DNA of 62,653 bases, filler included, from Stramenopiles sp. TOSAG23-2 (taxonomy: Eukaryota): assembly GCA_900128395.1 (NCBI GenBank). It is 8 parts of 8 records of this genome, joined end to end, with 100 filler letters (N's around TTAATTAATTAA, not from the genome) between each part and the next. Parts side by side here need not be neighbours in the genome. Positions count along the whole stretch, not along the records: positions 1 to 11,513 come from LT649924.1; 7 more parts are not named here. One strand, written 5' to 3'. Position 1 is the first letter of the stretch, and each line of letters opens with the position of its first letter. The translations under genes and the position numbers were made by a program. The notes below the pieces were generated by a model. It was not told the origin of the DNA. It did no database searches and was given only the letters and a program-made list of their open reading frames with translations. Positions 1 through 61,174 of the stretch are shown here, one piece after another.

Positions 1-11
1 GTATCATATAC

Positions 12-1925
12 ATGGAAAACGTTGTGTTTCAAGGCAACACTGCGACAAATGCAAATGGTGGTGCGATATATTTTCATATAGCAGATGGTGATTGCGGTCT
101 ATTCAGTAATAAGATGGTAAATCAATCGACTATTTTAAAAAATAATGTTATTTTTTATGATAATGTTGCAAAATATGCAGGCGGTGCAATCTTCGCTGAA
201 TGGTGCAATATACCCAATGTTGGGATTGTGTTGCCATATCGTTTTGAACAAGATGACAACAACAACAACAACAACTTTGACATAGCAGTAAAACCAATCT
301 TTAATGGTGGAAATCGATTGACGTTTTCCAAAGGTTATGGTCCAAATAATGCAAGTATGGGTGTTAGACTTGTGAAAAAGAAAATGCCAACAAACGTGAA
401 ATTGAACAAACCGGTAACCTTTCAAATATATGTACATGATATATTTGGCCATGTTGTTACAAATACACCAAATGTACCAGATTTTGAAATCATTTATGAC
501 AATGCAGACCTAAATAAAGAGTTAAATAAATACCAACCAACTATTCGAGATGGTATTATAACATTGCATCAAACCATTGGGAATAGTGGCGATGCAAACA
601 CTCTGTCAACGTTAGAACCAGATATGAATATACAATTAAATATTTCATTAATTCAAGTCGATTCATCTTCGTCAAACAAAGTTACATCAACGATTCATGC
701 TCCGACTAAGTTTGTAGTCTTTCGGTTGACACACATGTTTCGTATATCTGCATGTGATAAAGGTTTTGAATGGAATGATGTGACCAGAAAATGTTTAGTT
801 GTTACTGATATTTCGCTTGTTGTTATTTTTGGAATGTTATTTGGATTGTGTTTATTAGTCTTTATTTTCATTTATGTGTCGAAAGAAAATAAAGAGTCAA
901 ATAAGAATAGCTTGCATCAAAAATCGAAGAAAATATACTTGGCGGTCCAGAAAAAATTAAAAGATAAATATTTTATGGAAATATTAATGTTAGTAAAAGG
1001 AATTGTAGGTTCTGCTGGGGCATTATCATTGGAATGGGGAAGTTACCTGTCTATATTTGAAGCCCCAAACGCGACAATAGAACTATATGGTCGATTTAAA
1101 TATCCGTTTTTAATTTGTTTAATTCTTTCAACAATAGTGAGTATATTTACGATTTTCGAATATTTCTTAATTGTTAAAAATAAAGTAGATAATATGAGAA
1201 ACGGAATACAAGTTAGTGAACATCTTATTGTTGGGAGAGGAAGAAGAAGGACCAGAAAACGGGCGGGCACTTATGACAACGGTCAAAAAGCTGCATCGGG
1301 CGATCTGCACGTAAATTTAGTTCATTTGACCTCAAAAATTAAACGTAGCATATTGGAAATTGCAAATTTAATTTTTCGTCGATTGCCGTTTCTTTCTGTG
1401 AAAATTTTAGTATTCTTTGAGATTGTTGAGAAATCATCAAATACACGGTGGTTATGTACGGACATTTTTATGTGCGATATGTGCCAAGTTGGAGTTGATG
1501 ATGAAGTAGTAGGAGCATCGTTATCCTCAACACATGGAGTAGACTGTGATATCAATGGTAGACAAATCCATCCATTATTATTTGGGAGTATTTTTCTTTC
1601 CACTTTTCAAGTTGGATTTGCATCAAGAGCAATTTTTATTGCATTTCAAACAAATTCAAAATTAAAATTAGTGAAAAAAAACATAGAATTAGTTAAGGTA
1701 CAAAGACGTTTATCGATAGCAGCTGGTATTGGTAAAAGTGAGATGGAAGCAATGGTATTTCACGACGATGCGGACGAGCAGGATGGTGAAGAATCTCGTA
1801 ACAATTTGAAGCAAGGTGTAAAGAAGCAAGCCAGACAAGCAGATTTATCTGGAGTAATAGAAATGCATTTAGATATAAATAATAATACAGGGCTTACGGA
1901 AAATCCAATGGTTTGTAAAAGTTAA
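12..1925 (+). CDS. Membrane protein with Pmp/pectin-lyase-like GGAI repeats and a multi-TM C-terminal region (probably 5'-partial)
   Basis: FQGNTATNANGGAIY and FYDNVAKYAGGAIF repeats; Cys-rich CDKGFEWNDVTRKC; several hydrophobic TM segments; begins at the window edge. Confidence 0.6.
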   Translation: MENVVFQGNTATNANGGAIYFHIADGDCGLFSNKMVNQSTILKNNVIFYDNVAKYAGGAIFAEWCNIPNVGIVLPYRFEQDDNNNNNNFDIAVKPIFNGGNRLTFSKGYGPNNASMGVRLVKKKMPTNVKLNKPVTFQIYVHDIFGHVVTNTPNVPDFEIIYDNADLNKELNKYQPTIRDGIITLHQTIGNSGDANTLSTLEPDMNIQLNISLIQVDSSSSNKVTSTIHAPTKFVVFRLTHMFRISACDKGFEWNDVTRKCLVVTDISLVVIFGMLFGLCLLVFIFIYVSKENKESNKNSLHQKSKKIYLAVQKKLKDKYFMEILMLVKGIVGSAGALSLEWGSYLSIFEAPNATIELYGRFKYPFLICLILSTIVSIFTIFEYFLIVKNKVDNMRNGIQVSEHLIVGRGRRRTRKRAGTYDNGQKAASGDLHVNLVHLTSKIKRSILEIANLIFRRLPFLSVKILVFFEIVEKSSNTRWLCTDIFMCDMCQVGVDDEVVGASLSSTHGVDCDINGRQIHPLLFGSIFLSTFQVGFASRAIFIAFQTNSKLKLVKKNIELVKVQRRLSIAAGIGKSEMEAMVFHDDADEQDGEESRNNLKQGVKKQARQADLSGVIEMHLDINNNTGLTENPMVCKS

Positions 1926-2061: not shown

Positions 2062-4047
2062 TCACAAACGCGAAACCATCATATCATTAGTATCACCTTC
2101 TGTAGGTGTAAAATTTAATACAATATCACTACTGCCATTACTATAAAGATTCACAATTGTATTCATTACCTTGATAATCATTTCACAGACATACTCAGCT
2201 TCTTCTTTTGTTAGTACAATTGGATTTAGTAACAATCCATTCTCCGTAGTATTAATTGCAATTCGTGGTGTATTATCTAAATTAGCCAAACGATATGCTA
2301 AATATGAGCCAGGAGATGTAGGCATAATTTTCATTGGAGATCCATGATTAACACCATCACCATACAAGTTATTGTTATTATTTACATTTGTATGATCCAA
2401 GTTAAATTTAAAATGATTTAAATTGATAAAAATTAATTGATGCATATTTGGTTGAATATCTGTCATGTGCATCTCAAAACCAGTATTTACATTCAACTGA
2501 ATATATTTATTTAACAATTTATTTTCGGATTTGTTTAACAGCAAATTCATTTTTTCTATAAAAAATGTTGTAATCGCATTCACATTTTCCGGGTAATCAC
2601 CATCCTTCTTCAAAAACTCTTCCAATGCTGCAACTAAACCCACAATGCTTTCTTTACTAGTTTTCATCGGCCTCCCCACAGTTGTCTCATTTGGACATGC
2701 ATTTGCTCTTGATGCATTTATTAACCATGTCTTTCCAATCATAAAACCCGACGATTGTGGTCCACGAAGCATTTTCCCACCAGAAAATAAAACACAATCA
2801 ACATTATATTTATTTGTAAATATGTTTAAATTTGATACAGGTGGTAATCTTGCAGCAGCATCTACTATGACTGGGATATTTTTAATATATTGATTGTTAT
2901 GACATATTTGAACGACCTTATCAATTGATAATATATTTTTGCCACCACCACTAAAATATACAAATCCACAAATCATTTTTTTATATTTTTTAATAGCATT
3001 TATTAAATCCATTTCTGTCATTGGTTGCTTTACAGTACCAATTTCTAATATTTTTGCGCCAGTCAGTTCCATCGATTGGTTCCACCTTGTATCTGAACCA
3101 CCATCAATCAAAATTATATTATTTCTACTATGTTTCATCATATACAATTTTGGCAATGTTTTTATGATTTCAATATCATAACCATTTTCTTTACTTTCAT
3201 CTCGTGCTAAGCAACTTGCAACACTAAGTGCTAATCCGGCACTAGCACCAGTGGTAACATGAGCATCATATTCATTTGACGGATGAATATTACATAATGC
3301 TTTGATTTTCTCACCTGCTGCTACTAACAGCTCATTTAAATCAACAAATTTATTGGAAACTTCATACATAGCTTGTATGGCTTTTGGATGCAAGCGTGAA
3401 CCACCAAGTGAAGTAAAATGTCCACAGCAATTGACAACACTGTCGACCATTATCATGGAAGAAGATGCCAGTGCTGGTGAATTCAACGATGTATTATTTG
3501 TATTAGTATTCGTAGTATCATTGTTAATCTCATGATTCTCATCATCTGTTAAATAAAACTCAACAACAAGCTCAATTTCTACAGGTGTATGCATTGGTAA
3601 ACTGCCAACACCAATGGCTGAACGGACACCAACGCCATTTTCAGGTCCAAAAATTTCTTTCATCAATTCAGAATATCCATTTGCGACTGTAATTTGTTCG
3701 CTAAAATCTGGTATACAATTTACCATAACTAATGATTTAATAATTCTTTTTACACGATTCAACGTTCCATATTTATTTCTTAGTGTTGCCAATATACTTA
3801 GTCCAGTTTGCCTAGATGCAACGACAGCTTCATCTATTGACATATTTTTACCAACTTTACCTTTCATGAAAGATTTATCTGATAACATTGGTCCATGCCC
3901 AGAAACATATGAAATCACAGAAGTATGATTATTTAATGGACTAACATCAATAGTTGGTCGATAAACTCCAAATGGTTCAGGTGGTAGTGGTAATTCCAAT
4001 CCATGCTTTGTTAAATAATTCTTTAAATTCCTTTCAGCTGTTGTCAT
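2062..4047 (-). CDS. Fusion of a Rid/YjgF (Rid1-like) imine deaminase and a SelA/DgaE-like fold-type I PLP enzyme
   Basis: aa 1-165 carry YVSGHGP, RVKRIIK and RSAIGVGSLP..PVEIE (Rid Arg/Glu). An Asn/Thr linker follows. Then VVNCCGHFTSLGGS, VIVDAAA, FSGGK (PLP Lys)..GPQSSG and GRPMKTSKESIVGLVAALE (SelA/DgaE-like). Confidence 0.85.
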   Translation of the reverse strand: MTTAERNLKNYLTKHGLELPLPPEPFGVYRPTIDVSPLNNHTSVISYVSGHGPMLSDKSFMKGKVGKNMSIDEAVVASRQTGLSILATLRNKYGTLNRVKRIIKSLVMVNCIPDFSEQITVANGYSELMKEIFGPENGVGVRSAIGVGSLPMHTPVEIELVVEFYLTDDENHEINNDTTNTNTNNTSLNSPALASSSMIMVDSVVNCCGHFTSLGGSRLHPKAIQAMYEVSNKFVDLNELLVAAGEKIKALCNIHPSNEYDAHVTTGASAGLALSVASCLARDESKENGYDIEIIKTLPKLYMMKHSRNNIILIDGGSDTRWNQSMELTGAKILEIGTVKQPMTEMDLINAIKKYKKMICGFVYFSGGGKNILSIDKVVQICHNNQYIKNIPVIVDAAARLPPVSNLNIFTNKYNVDCVLFSGGKMLRGPQSSGFMIGKTWLINASRANACPNETTVGRPMKTSKESIVGLVAALEEFLKKDGDYPENVNAITTFFIEKMNLLLNKSENKLLNKYIQLNVNTGFEMHMTDIQPNMHQLIFINLNHFKFNLDHTNVNNNNNLYGDGVNHGSPMKIMPTSPGSYLAYRLANLDNTPRIAINTTENGLLLNPIVLTKEEAEYVCEMIIKVMNTIVNLYSNGSSDIVLNFTPTEGDTNDMMVSRL

Positions 4048-11513: not shown

Positions 11514-11613
11514 NNNNNNNNNNNNNNNNNNNNNNNNNNNNNNNNNNNNNNNNNNNNTTAATTAATTAANNNNNNNNNNNNNNNNNNNNNNNNNNNNNNN
11601 NNNNNNNNNNNNN
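11514..11613. other. Artificial contig linker
   Basis: N44-TTAATTAATTAA-N44 (stops in all six frames). Confidence 0.98.
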
Positions 11614-23124: not shown

Positions 23125-23224
23125 NNNNNNNNNNNNNNNNNNNNNNNNNNNNNNNNNNNNNNNNNNNNTTAATTAATTAANNNNNNNNNNNNNNNNNNNN
23201 NNNNNNNNNNNNNNNNNNNNNNNN
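23125..23224. other. Artificial contig linker
   Basis: N44-TTAATTAATTAA-N44. Confidence 0.98.
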
Positions 23225-29114: not shown

Positions 29115-29848
29115 ATTTTGTATTATATTTTCAAATTAATATATTGTATATTTATTTCTTCTCTTCGTTTTTTTTTTTTGTTTTTTGTCTTATTTTCCCA
29201 CTTGTTTGTAGTGGATGATGATATCTTTATCTTTCGTCTTTCTTTTTTCTTGAATAACTATAGTATATAAATCTATATATATCTCTACTGTATCTATTCG
29301 TTTGTTTTATTAATTTATTTATTTATTAGTCTATTGAATCTATTTTAGCTTACTCCCACTTACTGCCGCACTATCGATACTGGCTTAAAAATTTGTGGAT
29401 CAAACTGCTGCGGCAAAAAAAAATTAAAAAAATGATGTGCCTGCCTAAAAGTGTGCTGATGTGGTGTTATGTTGATGGTGTGATGATGAAAAAAAAGGTA
29501 AGAGTGAAAAATTACTTTTACAATAACTTTGATATTATTAGAATTACATATATTAATATAGAAATAGCATTATAATATAATATTTTCAATATTATAGTCG
29601 TCTAGCTATACTACTATTTTTTTATTAGTAGTACTTACCCTTAATAAGAACTACAGTACTACTTACAGTAATTAGACTTTTAAACCTAAACTGTATTATA
29701 ATATAAATATTTAAATTGATTTTTGGATATGAAATGTGCAAATCCTATCTATAGTATGAGGGAGAAAAAAAAAAGATACTCTGATGGTATTATAGTTTAT
29801 GTTAGATGCCCAACGAATCAACGAAAAAAAAAGAGAGAGAAAAAAAAG

Positions 29849-30790
29849 ATGGTATTATTATTGCATTCTTGGATATTAATAATAATAGTTGTAATAAATA
29901 TTGTAATACAACATTCATATGGAAAAATAATAGGTTGTTCAGTTATTCCACATGGTGATTTTGCATATGATCCATCCTTAGTTGATAATAAAAATGGCAG
30001 TTTAAAAGTTCATATTGGTGCAGTAGAAGCTGGTAAATATATTGATTCACTTGAACCAGATATTATTATACTCACAACACCACATAATATTGCCATGACG
30101 AATAATTTTGCAGTCTTTAAAAATTCTATTGGTACAGGTTTTGCTGAATTGGGTGACGATTTACATAATGAATCATTCCATCATAAATATAAAATATATC
30201 GTAATGCTTCTATGGATGCTGATTTATCGAATAATTTTGTGAGAAAAATGCACAATTCATATCAATTAAATGTCAGTGGGCTGATGTCTTTTGCCGATGG
30301 TCAACCACAGGAATTAGGATGGGGAGAAATAATTCCAATGTCATTTTTATCAAATGCAACAATAAAAAAAGCAAAATTTATATTTATTAATTTACCAGAA
30401 CGTCGTTATAATCATTCAAAAGAAATGATTCCAGAATTGCTGAATTTAGGAAAGCATGTTTTTGATTTTTTTGATCCATTGACTGAAAAAGTTGCGTTTA
30501 TTGGTAGTAGCGATTTAGCACATACACATTTAAAATCTGGTCCATATGGATATAGTAAATATGCAGAGCCATTTGATCAATTTTCAGGGATGTGGGCAAA
30601 CAACCCAAAAGAAAATGAAGATAAATTGTTAATAAACGCTGGTAATATAGAAATTTATGCTATGTCCTGTGGTTTTCCATCCTTAGTTATTTTAAATGGT
30701 CTTTTGCGTAATGATTGGAATCGATGGGAACCAAAGTTATTTGCAAATGAACACCCAACATATTATGGCATGCTTGTCAGTATTTATTAA
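29849..30790 (+). CDS. Secreted LigB/Memo-like (extradiol dioxygenase subunit B fold) protein
   Basis: Signal-like MVLLLHSWILIIIVVINIVI; VIPHG, PDIIILTTPH, WGEIIP, FIGSSDLAH, FD, SCG, PTYYGMLV motifs. Confidence 0.75.
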   Translation: MVLLLHSWILIIIVVINIVIQHSYGKIIGCSVIPHGDFAYDPSLVDNKNGSLKVHIGAVEAGKYIDSLEPDIIILTTPHNIAMTNNFAVFKNSIGTGFAELGDDLHNESFHHKYKIYRNASMDADLSNNFVRKMHNSYQLNVSGLMSFADGQPQELGWGEIIPMSFLSNATIKKAKFIFINLPERRYNHSKEMIPELLNLGKHVFDFFDPLTEKVAFIGSSDLAHTHLKSGPYGYSKYAEPFDQFSGMWANNPKENEDKLLINAGNIEIYAMSCGFPSLVILNGLLRNDWNRWEPKLFANEHPTYYGMLVSIY

Positions 30791-31043: not shown

Positions 31044-32978
31044 TTAAGAAAGTGAAGATTTATGCACCTCGTTTTTTTCAATAGATAAAGAACCGGTTCT
31101 GAATCTGAAACACTCGTTGATTGCATTATAAATAACATAGTCCGAGTTGTATTTCTTTGGATGCCTCATCCAACCATCGATCATTAAAGTGAAAATGAAG
31201 AAAAACGCTTCCAATGATTCAAATGTAATTGCTTGATTTTTACAAGCTGCATCTCTTTCATCTTCCACTTCATTACACCATCCTAAAAATGGTAACATTA
31301 ACATTATGAATGACATAAGAAAACGAACACCTATTCGTACCCGTTTTGGTATCCGATGTTCACCACCTGCTTTACCTTGATGTACCATTTGTATAACAGT
31401 TGTGAAAAAAACGATTAAAAAACAACCAATACCATAAATGCATCGCTTCAACTCATCTGTCAACCCATCTTGATGAATATGATCTTCAAGAATAGAAGAG
31501 ACAAACAACACGCCTAAAATAATAGGAATATATGATAATGAAAAGACAATACCACGTAATGCAGAGACCGTCAATGCATGTTGTATATGCTTTCTTTTAT
31601 TTACTTTCCTACTTGCACTTACAGTAGGATGTTCTGCATAATCAAATGCTAGAAATTTGATACCTAAAGTGGTAATTACAGCAATAATAATTTTTGTAAT
31701 AATATATGGATCGTTTTTCAAAGTAGCTGTACCCTTGACATCTGCCCCGGCAATGCATTCACCTAACGATAAAACTACAAATAGATCAAATCGTTCAACT
31801 TGAACATGAGTATTCAATGGCACAAACTCAGTGCCATCTGTATCAGCAAGTTGTTTGCCAACGCATCCATTGCGACAACAACTGCAAAAAATTGATCGCA
31901 TTCCTTTTTTATGAATCCATTTCCTAGAACTTCCATTTGCCATCCCCAAGTGCCAACCCATCTGAACAAATACTGCAAGCCACCACCCGATCAGAAATAT
32001 TGTAGGATCTCCTGAATTTTTCCAAATAGGTATTCCAACAAATGCAGTAAATCCCCATATAATTGATTGAAGCATTTTCCATGCACTCATTTCCTTTGCA
32101 TACCTTCCAAATATTCTAGCATCTCCTGCCCATAAAATATATTGATGGTACAAAAATATATTGAATAGACATACCATTAATGTAAATATATAGTAATCAC
32201 AACTATCAGCTCTGTCTTCATCTAGTGTATGATCGCTACCTGCACATTTTCCAATCGTACGCCCGAGAAATACAAATGTAAAAACATTGACAGCGAAAAA
32301 AAATAGATGAATAGCATCTTTTTGTTCGAAGCGATTTAACAAGGTCACAATATCGGTCCAAACCATGTAGATTGGAACAAATAATGCGATACAATCTCTC
32401 ATCCCATAAAATATTTGCGCAGACAATTCACTATTAATGTCAGTTGTTGATGGAATGAATGATGAATTGTTGTGGGAGCTTGCGGATGATGATGTTGACA
32501 GTAAATGATGGCCACCACCATTGCTACTGCTACTACTGCCACTGGAATGTGTGCCTTCAGTCAAACTTATCAAATTTTTCATATTAACATGAACTAGTGT
32601 ATTCAACATATACACAAAACATAAATCTAATACAAGATCATTTGTTGTGGCAGTTCTGTGTTCGTTTGTTTTTGCTAAGGAATTTCCACCTCCTAATTTT
32701 TCTGGTAAAAAAAGTTGTCTTGGTTTTGGTTTTATATAAAGTGGTACATAAACGGAATGATGATCATGATGATGATCAGCTTCTTTATTTAAATCATCCA
32801 AATATTCTTTCATAGCTTCACTTACTTCCGAACTGTGCAAATCATGATGCCAGGTATCACCAACACTCCAAATTTTTTCTTCATTTTCCACTTTCGTTTC
32901 TGTATCTACCTCCGCAAGCACATCGTTGCTAAGTAGTGGTGTGACATCGATATTTGTTTTGTCATTAATATTCATCAT
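31044..32978 (-). CDS. LtrA (low temperature requirement A)-like polytopic membrane protein
   Basis: DLVLDLCFV near the N-terminus, NRF, HVQVERFDLFVVLSLGECI; about 10 TM segments. Confidence 0.75.
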   Translation of the reverse strand: MMNINDKTNIDVTPLLSNDVLAEVDTETKVENEEKIWSVGDTWHHDLHSSEVSEAMKEYLDDLNKEADHHHDHHSVYVPLYIKPKPRQLFLPEKLGGGNSLAKTNEHRTATTNDLVLDLCFVYMLNTLVHVNMKNLISLTEGTHSSGSSSSSNGGGHHLLSTSSSASSHNNSSFIPSTTDINSELSAQIFYGMRDCIALFVPIYMVWTDIVTLLNRFEQKDAIHLFFFAVNVFTFVFLGRTIGKCAGSDHTLDEDRADSCDYYIFTLMVCLFNIFLYHQYILWAGDARIFGRYAKEMSAWKMLQSIIWGFTAFVGIPIWKNSGDPTIFLIGWWLAVFVQMGWHLGMANGSSRKWIHKKGMRSIFCSCCRNGCVGKQLADTDGTEFVPLNTHVQVERFDLFVVLSLGECIAGADVKGTATLKNDPYIITKIIIAVITTLGIKFLAFDYAEHPTVSASRKVNKRKHIQHALTVSALRGIVFSLSYIPIILGVLFVSSILEDHIHQDGLTDELKRCIYGIGCFLIVFFTTVIQMVHQGKAGGEHRIPKRVRIGVRFLMSFIMLMLPFLGWCNEVEDERDAACKNQAITFESLEAFFFIFTLMIDGWMRHPKKYNSDYVIYNAINECFRFRTGSLSIEKNEVHKSSLS

Positions 32979-34728: not shown

Positions 34729-34828
34729 NNNNNNNNNNNNNNNNNNNNNNNNNNNNNNNNNNNNNNNNNNNNTTAATTAATTAANNNNNNNNNNNNNNNN
34801 NNNNNNNNNNNNNNNNNNNNNNNNNNNN
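34729..34828. other. Artificial contig linker
   Basis: N44-TTAATTAATTAA-N44. Confidence 0.98.
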
Positions 34829-46326: not shown

Positions 46327-46426
46327 NNNNNNNNNNNNNNNNNNNNNNNNNNNNNNNNNNNNNNNNNNNNTTAATTAATTAANNNNNNNNNNNNNNNNNN
46401 NNNNNNNNNNNNNNNNNNNNNNNNNN
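46327..46426. other. Artificial contig linker
   Basis: N44-TTAATTAATTAA-N44. Confidence 0.98.
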
Positions 46427-49400
46427 CCAAATGCACCTTTGCCTAAGACTCTAATCCTTTCAAAATCTGTCAAACCAATTGCACGTCTTGGCGGCTTTCG
46501 CTGTTGTTGTTGTTGTAAATCCATTTTATGCTCTTCTATATTCTCGCTGCTATCGCTATTAAGATTCATCATGCCGATTGGTTGTTCTGGTGAATTTTTA
46601 CGTTGCGGGCGCCATCTAGGTGAAATATTCATATCATTTGGTGATGCAGATCCTTTGGTATAGGAGGAGGCGTGATTGTTATAGTAATTATTGCTATTAT
46701 TACTATCATAATTGTTATTGTTGTTGTTGTTTCGTGTTGTTAATAATTCGTATGGGGATGGATTATATTCTGAACTACCATGTACTGTATGGCTCAGGCT
46801 ATCATTTGGTGACGAATCTACAAATAAACTATCGTGGTCTCTGTGGGTGTTTAGCGTTTCAAAAGCTTTATCTGATCGGTCCCATCTTTGGTCGAGGGCT
46901 TCTTTAACATGAAAGTCAACATTGCAAAATTGTGGATTGTCAGTCTTTTGCAGCTCCGCTGAATGCAGATTTAAACCTGATACATTTGCTTTAATTAAAT
47001 TGTGTCTTTTTCTTTTCTCTTCCCTATTCACATTGTCTCGTTGTTCCATCGCATCCTTTCGTCCCATTGATACTTTTGCTATTGTTGCCAAATCTAATCG
47101 TTTCATCATTTCAATCATCATAGAACCATGTTCATAATTGCGATTTCCAGTTTTTGGTCGATATGACATAACTTCATGATCTTTCAACATATTGCGTATT
47201 TTTATAGCAGTCTTATTGCTTTCCACTTTTTCTGCTTTACTTGCACGAAATATCCAACCATCATTTTTTGACATCACGAAAATTATATTTTTTTTAACCA
47301 ATAAATCGTTTCTTTTTATTAAAATCTCTCCTAATATATCTAAGCATTTTTTATCTTCCAAAATACCACCAGTTAAAATTACAATAGCATATTCAGCTTG
47401 ATCAATATTAGTTGTGTGGGTTTGCTTCATCTCTATTAATGATTTTATAATATCTTCTGCAATTGCTTTTCCAGTTATTATATATTTATTCGATGATTCT
47501 TCAGCATAAACAACTAGAAATTTATGGCCACTTGTAAAATTAGGTGGTGTTGGTGTTGGCACATTGATGTTGGCACGTTCTAATAATTGGTACAACATTG
47601 CTTCGTATTCAAATCCACGACGACGATGGGGTATCATGTCTTTCTTCATTTCAATTATTTTATCACGTATGTCTGTTGCTTTGTTATCAGCACGTTTTTC
47701 TAAAGCTTTAAAACTCTTGAATCCCATGTCTTTTGTTTCAAGATCTTCATACGTATTTTCTAAAAAAGATGTTATAATACCATTAAGCTTCTGTACTGAC
47801 GGTTCCCATTCACGCTCTTCTATATTCTTATGATTTACTTTTCTTGAACATTTATTATTTTTCCAACGTTTTAAATCCCATTGCCAAAACATTGGATTTT
47901 CTTCAACTATTACAATAATTGGTTTTTTATACAACATTGCAGTGGCAAATTCTAATAAGCAATACCATCTAGACATATAGCTATTTGTTAACATGACGAC
48001 AAACACATCTGAATCGATCACACCTTGTATCATACTATTTGCATCAATATTTTTCTGGGACATGTCGCGCCATACATGTATACCTAATGTAGCTAATGTA
48101 TTGAACAATGCGCCAATTTCACCGGAGGATTCAGCTTGCATATGGGATATAAACATGTGATATTTCATTGGTCGCGGTGTTATTGAATTTAATGAAGTGG
48201 TGTTAATTAATGACTGGAAAAAGTGGTGTTTCAATATCTCATCAGCATCTTTCGGCCTTTCACCAGGTTTGCCTTTTAAACACCATCGAATTAAATCTTT
48301 AGTAGCATTTGTAAATTGTTGGTTACTTGGAAAATTAATCAAATTCAAATGTTTATCTGATATCGTATGCCATGCACATAAAATTCTTTTGTCTGTTTCA
48401 TTTACTAAATTATCGTTACTTATATCTAGGTGAAACAATCGCTGCCCTGTACATAGTTCAAATAATAACACACCTAATGACCAAACATCAAATGAGGTTT
48501 TGATTTTGTCCAATGTCTCATTAGGTATGAGCAAACACCGAGCTAATTCTGGAGGACAGTAGCCTGTGCTATGCTTTGAGTCTTTCTTTCGTTGGCTATC
48601 GCATCTACATGCTGCATCCATATCGCATAATAGCAATTGTTCTTTGCCATTACGGTTAACATATAATAAATTCCGCGGTTTTAAATCACAATGTATATAT
48701 TCTAAATCATGCAACTCTTTCACTTTGGTTACAGCTTGGCAAAATATGTTAGCAATTTTATTTGGATTATAACCGGCAATACCTTGTGTAGAAAGCTCGT
48801 GAAACAATGATACAACGCCACGTTCCATTACCAGTACAAATTGGTGATCAGGGTGAAATGTTGGCTCTGTGACACAATCTCGTTGTTTTCCATTATGATT
48901 TTCTAATGGAACTTTTGTTTCAGCGTTCGGCAAATGCCACCCAAGTACTTTGACTACACATTGATTAATCCTATCATCAAGATTATTACTAAATCGTGCA
49001 GTAATCTCACGTTTAAATTCATCATAATTTTTCATTAATTTTAATGCTACTTGATTGTTGTTATCTTTAGTATCTGTAGCAAAAAACACAATCGATGTTG
49101 ATGATTGATGTATTGGTTTTTCTTCATTCGTGATTTTATAACGTTGAAATTTTGTACCGAGTGATTTGGCCCATTGAACAACTAATGGCCATTTGCAATT
49201 GTTACGTACGATAGCATAACGATCACGATCTAGTGCATCACGGTATGTTGGTTTCATTTTGTTATAAATGTGCTTTGTTAACTCAAGATGTTCATTCTCC
49301 TTGAATTTGTCAACTGTCATTCCGCATATGTAATGTAAATTAGTTTCGCCATTTATTTCTAAATCTTCGTCAATTTGATTAATACGTTTATCACTTGCTA

Positions 49401-50460
49401 ACATTTTATATATATTTACATTTAAATCATCAATTACGTGACGTAATATGATAGGTGTTTCCGGGAGATTGCCCATGTATACATTATCTTCATTCAGTAA
49501 TTTTTGAAACGCATTAAAATGTCTATCTTTTAATGCATTATTTAAATCATTTAAATCACCATTATTTGGTCCTACATAATTGCCATTTTTATCATAAGTA
49601 TTTGCTTTTCCACCATATGAACGTATAAGTTTTATGATCTCTTGTTTATTTGGACTATCATTATTATATGCCAAGTCCAGCGGGGTATTCCCCCACGATG
49701 TTTTATTACGACTTGTTTTATTAATATTATCAAGAGATAGGTTGTCTAATATTAGTTGAATCAATTCAGTATTCATTTTGCTGTAACGCGTTAGTTTATG
49801 CAGTGCATTTTCTCCATCAAGCTTTACATCACTAGGATCAGCTTTACAGTCTCCTATTAAATAACGAACAATGTCGAAACGTCCATTCGCTATAGCTGCC
49901 CTTAAAGGTGTCGTACGATAACCATTCCTGTTCCTACCAACTTGATTCACTGTCTCTTTTTTTGTTATACCACTTTCATTCACGTCATGACCTGAAATAA
50001 ATAATTTCACATAATCAGAACGTCCTATTTCACATGCATATACCAATGGAGTGCCTGCTGGATTAGCCCCATGCTTTACAAGGCAATGTGCTATCTTATA
50101 TCTTTCTTCTTCTATTTTGATGTTTCCCCCTATCGCCATCACTGCTGCTTGTATTGGTGTGTTTGAAATGCCATCACAGTTGATCAAAACTTGGTTTAGC
50201 ATCTCTTTTAATGTTCTACCACTTTTGATCACATTATGGCCTTTGATCAATAATTGCACATGCCCAAAACGCCCACATTGAATCGCGCATATCAGTGGCG
50301 TGCCCATCCAAAATTCATTTTTATATGCCCTTTTTAAATTCTCCACAGTGTTGCTATCAATTGTTGCACCATTCTCTAGTAGTATTTCTCCTTTGTCATT
50401 AAATGCACGCATCTCCAACTCACCAGAGGCATAGTTGTTATTATTCTCAATCGATGCCAT
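46427..50460 (-). CDS. Ankyrin repeat - atypical Ser/Thr kinase - TIR - degenerate TIR protein; 3'-truncated where a second, AGC-like kinase begins
   Basis: GTPLICA, GTPLVYA, TTPLRAA, ENALH and NTPLDLA ankyrins; VALKLM, IHCDLKPRN, LCDMDAA, STGYCPPE, DVWSLG; MFISH..VWRD..SDVFVVMLTNSYMSRWYCLLEF (TIR); ends IGLTDFERIRVLGKGAF. Confidence 0.88.
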
Positions 50461-57916: not shown

Positions 57917-58016
57917 NNNNNNNNNNNNNNNNNNNNNNNNNNNNNNNNNNNNNNNNNNNNTTAATTAATTAANNNNNNNNNNNNNNNNNNNNNNNNNNNN
58001 NNNNNNNNNNNNNNNN
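57917..58016. other. Artificial contig linker
   Basis: N44-TTAATTAATTAA-N44. Confidence 0.98.
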
Positions 58017-59495: not shown

Positions 59496-59595
59496 NNNNN
59501 NNNNNNNNNNNNNNNNNNNNNNNNNNNNNNNNNNNNNNNTTAATTAATTAANNNNNNNNNNNNNNNNNNNNNNNNNNNNNNNNNNNNNNNNNNNN
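59496..59595. other. Artificial contig linker
   Basis: N44-TTAATTAATTAA-N44. Confidence 0.98.
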
Positions 59596-61074: not shown

Positions 61075-61174
61075 NNNNNNNNNNNNNNNNNNNNNNNNNN
61101 NNNNNNNNNNNNNNNNNNTTAATTAATTAANNNNNNNNNNNNNNNNNNNNNNNNNNNNNNNNNNNNNNNNNNNN
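61075..61174. other. Artificial contig linker
   Basis: N44-TTAATTAATTAA-N44. Confidence 0.98.

Follow-up and report, generated by a model that had tools for sequence, protein, structure and literature searches.

Rid proteins are known to hydrolyse imines made by oxidases (PMC5619798, PMC4433059), and a conserved active-site arginine (Arg105 of RidA) together with a glutamate marks the imine-deaminating group among them (PMC4433059). Rid1, one subfamily of that group, is defined by the CDD footprint YjgF_YER057c_UK114_like_1 (PMC4433059, Table 1). Its members ACIAD3089 and PA0814 deaminate 2-aminoacrylate and other imines in vitro (PMC5619798), and the in-vivo substrates of the Rid1-3 subfamilies are given as unknown (PMC4433059). 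The Rid1-7 subfamilies have been described as 'present only in prokaryotes' (PMC5619798) or as 'largely confined to bacteria' (PMC4433059). Among enzymes that depend on pyridoxal 5'-phosphate (PLP), DgaE acts on D-glucosaminate-6-phosphate; its His162 and His163 are reported to be strictly conserved, and His163 protonates C-3 of the enamine while it is still on the enzyme (PMC9529869). The H163A variant is fully active yet frees enamine at the millimolar level, and the authors proposed that the histidine avoids release of a cytotoxic enamine of the kind removed by RidA (PMC9529869). Cap15 of capuramycin biosynthesis, by comparison, is an O2- and PLP-dependent monooxygenase-decarboxylase whose substrate is glycyluridine, a beta-hydroxy-alpha-amino acid, and whose product is a carboxamide (PMC7497351). 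Here we describe a single gene joining a Rid domain to a PLP-dependent domain distantly related to these enzymes, found in a stretch of DNA of 62,653 nucleotides (hereafter the window) made up of parts of eight records of the Stramenopiles sp. TOSAG23-2 assembly GCA_900128395.1.

The gene lies at 2062..4047 on the minus strand (-), as do all of its features given below. It runs uninterrupted from an ATG start to the stop codon at 2062-2064 and encodes 661 amino acids (aa), which comprise a Rid domain (residues 1-165, 3553..4047), a linker (residues 166-200, 3448..3552), a PLP-dependent fold-type-I domain (residues 201-653, 2089..3447) and a C-terminal SRL tripeptide (residues 659-661, 2065..2073). 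The original prediction, made from the sequence alone, had described one 661-aa open reading frame (ORF) with the Arg of RSAIGV and the Glu of VEIE in a Rid domain, an Asn/Thr-rich linker and a PLP domain with the Lys of FSGGK, and the ORF, the profile matches and the matches in the PDB all bear this out, with E-values that chance would not give. From the evidence below we consider it fairly probable that the product is a bifunctional enzyme of the peroxisomal matrix, in which PLP-dependent deamination of a beta-hydroxy-alpha-amino acid would be followed by imine hydrolysis on the built-in Rid domain, and that the fusion arose once.

The Rid half was matched by Pfam PF14588 (YjgF_endoribonc) over residues 15-140, with 35.6 bits (gathering score 35), and by PF01042 with 22.9 bits, under the cut-off of 27.3. 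Its sequence matches in the PDB ranged from E = 7e-18 to 5e-7 and included ACIAD3089 (9bkb, 7e-18), PA0814 (9bk9, 7e-12) and Atu1372 (3d01). In the structural model, which has a mean predicted local distance difference test (pLDDT) value of 88.4 as a whole and mostly above 90 in the Rid domain, Foldseek gave template modelling (TM) scores of 0.86-0.93 on the target, with ACIAD3089 at 0.93. The stretch GVGVRSAIGV (3607..3636) contains R142, the presumptive carboxylate-binding arginine, which aligns with the Arg of ACIAD3089 and is Arg in 11 of the 11 fused homologues aligned. The stretch PVEIELVVE (3559..3585) contains E157 and E159; it aligns with 'VEIN' of ACIAD3089, and both residues are kept in all fused rows of our alignment of homologues (A1). 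Judged by fold and by this Arg/Glu pair, the Rid half is a member of the Arg-containing imine-deaminase group (RidA and Rid1-3). RidA proper was ruled out (NCBIfam TIGR00004, 15.5 bits against a cut-off of 106.25), and the domain appears closest to Rid1, a placement taken from the nearest solved structures and PF14588, the Rid subfamilies themselves being defined by CDD footprints. ACIAD3089 and PA0814 (9BKB and 9BK9) are its best solved relatives and share the Arg and the Glu, whereas the Rid domain of the window is eukaryotic and covalently joined to a PLP enzyme.

Rid domains of this type may not be limited to the fusion. Two stand-alone Rid1-like proteins were also seen, one (P0233) with a presequence that looks mitochondrial by eye and the other (P0294) ending in SRL, which suggests that Rid1-like proteins occur in other eukaryotic compartments too, contrary to the description of the subfamily as confined to prokaryotes.

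When residues 1-170 were modelled alone as a homotrimer, the score was 0.90, compared with 0.00 for the best of three controls. The runs agreed in at least 90% of contacts, partner pLDDT was at least 90, and the predicted interface includes residues 141-153, 157 and 159. The mark applied here is reached by 21 of 30 proteins solved as same-chain pairs and by 0 of 23 single chains, having been calibrated with two copies and not three; moreover, Rid trimers have already been solved, so the pass may reflect memory or likeness only. The linker that follows is predicted to be disordered (pLDDT below 50 at residues 179-201), and its Asn/Thr-rich part (residues 168-197) varies in both length and sequence among homologues.

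The PLP half belongs to the SelA-related or, in the broad sense, DgaE-family enzymes. NCBIfam TIGR01437 (DgaE family / selA_rel) matched residues 201-503 with 133.5 bits (E = 8e-39), under its cut-off of 385.3, and NF047797, the DgaE equivalog, gave 92.6 bits against a cut-off of 600. Sequence matches in the PDB were DgaE (7lc0, E = 1.7e-19, 72.9 bits, residues 201-478) and Cap15 (8t7j, E = 3e-15, 58.8 bits), and Foldseek matched the modelled domain to Cap15 (E = 1.4e-20, TM 0.78-0.80 on the target) and to DgaE (E = 3.9e-19, TM 0.81). The term SelA/DgaE-like in the original prediction thus stands as far as a SelA-related, broadly DgaE-family domain is meant, and falls for DgaE proper, for which the scores lie far under the cut-offs. 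Orthology to DgaE was ruled out on these scores (92.6/600 and 133.5/385.3 bits) and on the replacement of His162/His163 by Phe/Ser. The identity of an L-seryl-tRNA(Sec) selenium transferase was likewise rejected (PF03841, 21.3 against 22.8; TIGR00474, 30.5 against 267.9); SelA shares the fold-type-I subgroup (Foldseek E = 1e-14) but is only 15-16% identical in the structural alignment.

Several active-site features are shared with DgaE. The motif FSGGK (residues 421-425, 2773..2787) aligns with 'YSGAK' of DgaE and holds the predicted PLP-binding Lys425, invariant in 20 of 20 aligned rows; Asp396, equally invariant (20/20), lies in VDAAARLPPVSNL (2827..2865) together with an 'LPPxxNL' stretch. 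The 'R-x-M-K-x-x-K-E' stretch of DgaE is present as well, as is a basic residue at the position of the carboxylate-binding Arg226. What DgaE lacks are the 'LPPxxNL' stretch, which is common to the nearest bacterial relatives and of which four residues fall in a gap of the alignment to 7lc0, a eukaryote-specific insert, the Rid fusion, the peroxisomal signal and the eukaryotic host. DgaE sits instead in an operon with a phosphotransferase system (PTS) and an aldolase, and the introduction of PMC9529869 describes no Rid gene there.

The difference most relevant to the fusion concerns the proton donor. In the stretch VYFSGGG (2941..2961), F365 and S366 occupy the positions of DgaE His162 and His163, within an ungapped part of the HMMER alignment to DgaE. 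All 20 aligned rows have Phe at position 365. Among 301 relatives, 3 have a His at either of these columns and not one has the His-His pair. A DgaE with the His-His pair was also sought in a plasmid collection, where all 25 matches listed were generic 'aminotransferase class V-fold' proteins. The branch to which the window's PLP domain belongs would therefore be without the device that spares DgaE a Rid, as far as the mutant of an enzyme only 21-23% identical can serve as a guide. Because the proton-donor pair is absent and H163A DgaE releases free enamine, the fused Rid domain would have a rationale, and no other point of mechanism speaks as strongly for the self-detoxifying idea of the original prediction.

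A further feature is an insert, YGDGVNHGSPMKIMP (residues 562-576, 2320..2364), with the motif Y-G-x-G-V-N/D-H-G-S/N-P. It is specific to the eukaryotic clade: the eukaryotic fused and PLP-only rows that reach it keep it, whereas the 3 bacterial rows in A1 lack it. It is modelled with low confidence (blocks covering residues 551-570 have pLDDT 55-61). No Arg in the C-terminal part of the PLP domain is invariant across A1. The same PLP family also occurs in other fusions, with an M81/MlrC metallopeptidase (P0084, 876 aa), with a short-chain dehydrogenase (P0313, 671 aa) and with DUF6025 and an AMP-binding enzyme (P0307, 1468 aa); to judge from these architectures, it is wired into several pathways.

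The consensus of the type 1 peroxisomal targeting signal (PTS1) is [SAC][KRH][LM] on an exposed C-terminal tail. The SRL ending of the window protein, on a tail with pLDDT below 50 (residues 654-661), is of this type, a feature that had not been recognised in the original prediction. Such an ending was found in all 11 fused cluster representatives (in the form S/A-K/R-L/M) and in 6 of 11 eukaryotic PLP-only rows. Of the bacterial-type PLP rows, 279 in all, 1 had it, and of the 119 rows for stand-alone Rids none did; the tails before it cannot be aligned among homologues. Because the tripeptide is conserved while the tails vary, and is nearly absent from the prokaryotic relatives, it is expected to be functional, and the window protein is probably peroxisomal. 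Rid activity in this organelle has a precedent, as UK114, the mammalian RidA, is partly peroxisomal in rat and human (PMC5979572).

The fusion is not peculiar to this organism. A word-indexed search recovered the Rid-PLP architecture in 11 clusters at 90% identity, the window's own included, which cover 80-100% of the query and reach down to about 40% identity (40-57%). Relative to the window protein, the Rid halves of the fused homologues are 44-68% and the PLP halves 40-56% identical, and this similarity suggests that both halves have been maintained. The cluster of about 98% identity holds 33 members from ENA, Logan and NCBI sources, of which at least 10, among the 15 members listed, are full-length (659-662 aa). 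A HMMER search of 1.84 billion representatives gave 6023 matches at E <= 1e-3 and 115 at E <= 1e-30, and two full-length fused representatives as well as fragments were found at 50% identity; the ESM Atlas yielded bacterial PLP clusters only, at 0.87, under the lead level of 0.9. From these sequences we conclude that the fusion is spread across marine protists of several lineages. Some homologues carry the automatic label 'seryl-tRNA(Sec) selenium transferase' (JGI), a SelA-type name that is wrong by the scores given above, or COG0251+K01042. No published description of a Rid-PLP fusion was found in the literature searched.

The gene also fits its surroundings. Its GC content is 0.32 and its GC content at third codon positions (GC3) 0.21, with both halves alike, and GC3 in neighbouring ORFs of the window is 0.18-0.28. 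By domain scan these neighbours are eukaryotic: PP2C with WW, a DEAH/RWD helicase, a kinase with ankyrin and TIR, Kelch/EGF, and CCCH zinc fingers. Contigs from poly(A)-selected seawater metatranscriptomes contain pieces of the gene at 95-100% identity, without joints or indels; at the edges of the linker these are record 12 of X2 (3457-3607) and record 4 of X1 (3231-3460). The only contig bridging the linker is record 8 of X18 (3149-3679), for which the kind of library is not on record, and stretches of the gene without contig coverage were counted as evidence neither way. The PGK encoded in the window is 98% identical to one marine cluster and 88% to a EukProt protein; its best named matches, at 65-69%, come from oomycetes, a labyrinthulid, tunicates and nematodes. 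With eukaryotic neighbours on both sides, a host-like GC3 and pieces in poly(A) metatranscriptome contigs, the fusion is a genuine gene of a eukaryote, a marine protist, and the claim that it is a single gene of a eukaryote is upheld.

To trace the origin of the two halves, trees were built for each domain. The PLP-domain tree had 94 rows, for which every second one among 78 named loci and every sixth of the remaining protein rows were taken. In it the PTS1-bearing eukaryotic sequences form one clade (Shimodaira-Hasegawa-like approximate likelihood ratio test, SH-aLRT, 99). The 11 fused forms group as a clade of their own (100), which sits inside the eukaryotic PLP-only forms and has P0016/P0018 as its sister (97). 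A 44-row tree under a site-heterogeneous model (quick posterior mean site frequency approximation, PMSF) agreed, with support of 99, 99 and 98. One PLP-only member of the eukaryotic clade is a diplonemid protein from EukProt, which implies that the clade spans distant eukaryotes, and the nesting of the fused forms implies that eukaryotes already had the PLP gene when the fusion took place. The nearest bacterial relatives of the PLP half are in Chloroflexota and allied phyla, with 36-39% identity. Those of the Rid half are stand-alone Rids of about 153 aa with 50-56% identity, the named ones being from Planctomycetes, Verrucomicrobia and Chitinophagaceae. Of the 10 fused Rid domains in the Rid tree (96 rows), 9 group as one clade (98) that also takes in fragment P0200 and lies among the stand-alone Rids of about 153 aa, and six Rids encoded beside such PLP genes in Chloroflexota and Thermomicrobiota are placed elsewhere. 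Fragment P0273 is placed elsewhere too and may represent a second Rid-PLP fusion. The trees would be explained most simply by a peroxisomal PLP enzyme that is old in eukaryotes, its later and single fusion to a Rid gained separately, and spread by descent thereafter.

Coupling of Rid domains, PLP enzymes and a third enzyme recurs elsewhere. One relative (P0005, 928 aa, incomplete at the N terminus) has the order amidohydrolase-Rid-PLP and another (P0221, 881 aa) the order amidohydrolase-PLP, the amidohydrolase being of the EF_0837 / PRK09237 type ('amidohydrolase/deacetylase family metallohydrolase'). As these two relatives branch separately within the eukaryotic clade, the amidohydrolase appears to have been joined at least twice. 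Bacterial loci were retrieved with the pattern VDAAA[QE]LPP, and the best 80 of 589 confirmed loci of PLP relatives were analysed, in which many flanks were short, so that counts of neighbours are lower bounds. An EF_0837-type amidohydrolase occurs in the flanks of at least 22 of the 80 loci (directly adjacent and on the same strand in 17), and a Rid1-like gene lies within 3.5 kb in at least 6. Six annotated replicons of distinct annotated genera were further chosen among 25 listed, two of them related Phyllobacteriaceae; a Rid-family gene is present in the flanks of 4 of the 6, and an amidohydrolase stands beside the PLP gene in 3 of the 6. In Chondrinema litorale the order is RidA-PLP-amidohydrolase behind SusC/SusD, with RidA and the PLP gene 118 bp apart, and the megaplasmids of Aminobacter and Phyllobacterium have amidohydrolase-RidA-(IclR)-PLP, which is the domain order of the triple fusion P0005. 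The Aminobacter Rid is 44% identical to the Rid half of the window protein, and the Chondrinema Rid gave no BLASTP match to it. Because the recruited Rids are of different kinds, recruitment of Rids beside bacterial PLP genes is suggested to be convergent.

These bacterial and archaeal cassettes resemble the window protein in having the same three families side by side and in that their PLP proteins also lack the His-His pair. They differ in being separate genes, with periplasmic or cytoplasmic products, whereas the window encodes one fused, PTS1-bearing protein; with identities to it of 31-32% (PLP) and 44% (Rid), neither half has its closest relatives among them. On the Chondrinema litorale megaplasmid (locus L081, 6299-10366), the RidA, the PLP enzyme, the amidohydrolase and a RraA-family protein all start with N-termini that look like signal peptides by eye, and this pathway may thus be located in the periplasm behind the SusC/SusD pair. 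At three other loci, a conserved ORF of about 173 aa without a Pfam or NCBIfam match lies just upstream of the amidohydrolase-PLP pair (L005:4217-4738 and L010:4265-4783) or of the PLP gene (L031:5393-5908).

Rid domains are also joined to another class of PLP enzyme. Threonine-dehydratase-like enzymes are textbook producers of enamines. In P0241 (443 aa), a Rid domain related to that of the window stands behind a threonine-dehydratase-like fold-type-II PLP domain, and P0173 (555 aa) has the end of such a domain and then three Rid domains in tandem, an arrangement that would be a covalent Rid trimer.

From these observations the following course of reaction can be proposed. The SRL ending, in view of its conservation, would direct import into the peroxisome by the PTS1 route. 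PLP would be bound at Lys425, with Asp396 facing the pyridine nitrogen, and the substrate, by analogy with DgaE and Cap15, would be a beta-hydroxy-alpha-amino acid, from which the PLP domain would remove the alpha-proton and eliminate the beta-hydroxyl. With Phe365/Ser366 in place of the His pair, the product would leave as a free enamine/imine. The Rid domain, on its flexible linker of about 30 residues and in the predicted trimer with R142 and E157 at the subunit interfaces, would then hydrolyse the imine to a 2-oxo acid and ammonia before it could damage PLP enzymes. Where present, the EF_0837-type amidohydrolase would deacylate an N-acyl precursor, as the fusions and operons suggest. The self-detoxifying logic of the original prediction thereby gains support, by inference, from the amidohydrolase fusions, the bacterial Rid/PLP/amidohydrolase cassettes and the missing proton donor of DgaE.

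For the substrate, a hexosaminate or similar amino-sugar acid, converted to a 2-keto-3-deoxy acid by an N-acyl-hexosaminate route, is a tentative assignment that we hold to be possible and somewhat short of probable. DgaE and Cap15, the two characterised relatives, both take beta-hydroxy-alpha-amino acids whose side chains resemble sugars. The neighbourhoods of bacterial and archaeal PLP relatives contain sugar ATP-binding cassette (ABC) transporters, SusC/D, Gfo/Idh/MocA and glucose 1-dehydrogenases and N-acetylglucosamine (GlcNAc) 2-epimerase, and further PIG-L, polysaccharide and AXE1-type deacetylases, 2-keto-3-deoxy-6-phosphogluconate (KDPG) aldolase and glucosamine-6-phosphate deaminase, with which the amino-sugar-acid catabolism proposed earlier is consistent. 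As ABC transporters and dehydrogenases, not a PTS, are the neighbours, a non-phosphorylated substrate is indicated. For haloarchaeal chitin degraders, a route from GlcNAc through glucosamine (GlcN) and glucosaminate and on by a DgaE homologue to 2-keto-3-deoxygluconate (KDG) or its phosphate, KD(P)G, has been predicted, and the gene cluster concerned includes a RutC-family (Rid) member (PMC12343721, 2025). Next in line come D-serine, D-threonine or other beta-hydroxy amino acids of D configuration, which, because a sugar-acid step in the peroxisome would be unusual, stay a serious alternative. In the widest reading, several lineages of marine heterotrophic protists would possess an undescribed peroxisomal module for the deamination of amino-sugar acids or of D-type beta-hydroxy amino acids, which bacterial or chitinous prey, for example, could supply. 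A lyase without the proton donor would obligatorily free its enamine and so repeatedly select for coupling to Rid, by separate recruitments in bacterial operons, by one old fusion in eukaryotes and possibly by a second (P0273). Taken as a whole, we regard this wider scheme as possible but less likely than not.

Other chemistries could account for the same protein. The PLP domain might be an O2-dependent PLP oxidase related to Cap15, of a kind lately discovered among fold-type-I enzymes, which would yield an imine, and possibly H2O2, by oxidative deamination; the Rid domain would hydrolyse the imine, and the peroxisome would place the peroxide by catalase. Cap15 (8t7j) is indeed the top Foldseek match (1.4e-20), marginally over DgaE, and matches by sequence with E = 3e-15; it too acts on a beta-hydroxy-alpha-amino acid (PMC7497351), the PTS1 is conserved, and oxidase-made imines are hydrolysed by Rids (PMC5619798, PMC4433059). 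By sequence, however, DgaE outscores Cap15 (72.9 against 58.8 bits). Cap15 takes part in making an antibiotic, has no described Rid partner and yields a carboxamide and not an imine, which would leave a Rid without a task, and the bacterial neighbourhoods are catabolic sugar/amidohydrolase clusters, not antibiotic biosynthesis, so that we consider an oxidase unlikely. It is about equally unlikely, in our estimate, that the PLP step releases no imine at all (transamination, retro-aldol cleavage, racemisation or decarboxylation) and that the Rid domain serves as an oligomerisation scaffold, a ligand sensor or a general protector of PLP sites. The catalytic Arg and Glu of Rid are kept in 11 of 11 fused forms, different kinds of Rid have been recruited beside this PLP family in bacteria, and a related Rid is fused to a threonine-dehydratase-like enzyme, all of which speak against such a role; what speaks for it is that the PLP half lies below all family cut-offs in a SelA-related group spanning three chemistries, and that it has a conserved eukaryote-specific insert.

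The original prediction had envisaged a different origin, in which a bacterial operon pair (Rid and DgaE-like) was transferred together and fused in this protist. Both families are mainly prokaryotic (for Rid, PMC5619798), and some bacteria, such as Chondrinema and that of locus L051, have a Rid beside the PLP gene in the same order. The trees nevertheless speak against a transferred pair: all fused forms fall in one clade (SH-aLRT 100 and 99) inside eukaryotic PLP-only forms that already have a PTS1, the nearest bacterial relatives of the two halves differ, and 9 of 10 fused Rids lie among stand-alone Rids of the kind named from Planctomycetes and Verrucomicrobia, away from the 6 operon-neighbour Rids. 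With a fully host-like composition and the fusion in 11 clusters down to about 40% identity, this origin is very improbable and, on the sequences compared, largely refuted. Nothing was found in favour of an artefact, whether a chimeric assembly, contamination by a bacterium or read-through of two genes, and one is hardly conceivable, given the uninterrupted ORF, at least 10 full-length copies in a 33-member cluster from several sources, homologues of 40-57% identity with the same architecture, eukaryotic neighbours on both sides and metatranscriptome contigs without joints or indels.

Several observations weigh against a Rid-coupled peroxisomal lyase nonetheless. The PLP half is under the curated cut-offs of every named family, and its best structural match, as modelled, is tied between the lyase DgaE and the O2-dependent monooxygenase-decarboxylase Cap15, so that the type of PLP reaction is inferred mainly from the Rid partner. 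The absence of the His-His pair is read from a pairwise HMMER alignment, and the C-terminal domain cannot be aligned to DgaE by sequence (the profile match ends at position 263-282), so that the phosphate-binding Arg301/332/346 cluster of DgaE falls outside the aligned part. Among the 80 bacterial loci, 74 had no Rid gene found nearby, their flanks often being short. We know of no precedent for a sugar-acid pathway in the peroxisome, and the domain scan of the window ORFs showed neither a KDG kinase nor an aldolase. Finally, the transcript expected across 3450-3560 is represented by poly(A) pieces and not by any single poly(A) contig bridging the whole linker (3448-3552), record 12 of X2 ending 9 nt short.

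Elsewhere in the window, tblastn of the amidohydrolase domain found nothing, and no second copy of the Rid or PLP domain was present. A 1361-aa ORF at 46375-50460 (-) combines ankyrin repeats, a protein kinase and TIR, an architecture resembling immune signalling in a protist. The ORFs at 31044-32978 (-) (LtrA, low temperature requirement A) and 29723-30790 (+) (LigB-type extradiol dioxygenase) belong to mainly bacterial families and are possible further bacterial-type genes among eukaryotic ones. The ORF at 3-1925 (+), open at its 5' end, has repeats ending in 'GGAIYF/GGAIFA' followed by a multi-pass hydrophobic region; it had no Pfam match at E <= 1e-5, and its repeats presumably recall those of chlamydial polymorphic membrane proteins. 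Seven places (11514-11613, 23125-23224, 34729-34828, 46327-46426, 57917-58016, 59496-59595 and 61075-61174) each consist of two runs of 44 N with 12 bases between them (616 N in total). The first five are about 11.6 kb apart, and they look like masking or scaffolding and not biology; none is in the gene studied, and one runs into the kinase ORF at its 3' end.

Overall, the window protein probably represents known families in a new, conserved, eukaryotic and peroxisomal architecture, for which the loss of a proton donor matched by the gain of a Rid would be a testable rationale. The covalent fusion names the partner enzyme of a putative Rid1-type domain directly and offers a one-protein system for the question of in-vivo partners, and it would bring into eukaryotes a Rid subfamily hitherto called prokaryote-only. 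It corrects the automatic name of a seryl-tRNA(Sec) selenium transferase (JGI), and the predicted peroxisomal proteome of marine protists gains a PLP enzyme and an imine deaminase. A candidate structural rule also follows, by which enzymes with the His-His pair would need no Rid and those without it would recruit one; it could divide the large 'aminotransferase class V-fold / SelA-like' family, most of it unannotated, into members that retain the enamine and members that release it. If the wider scheme set out above holds, the protein would mark the first case of a Rid1-type protein in eukaryotes and amount to a natural experiment indicating that Rids may be dedicated partners of pathways, and not only housekeepers.

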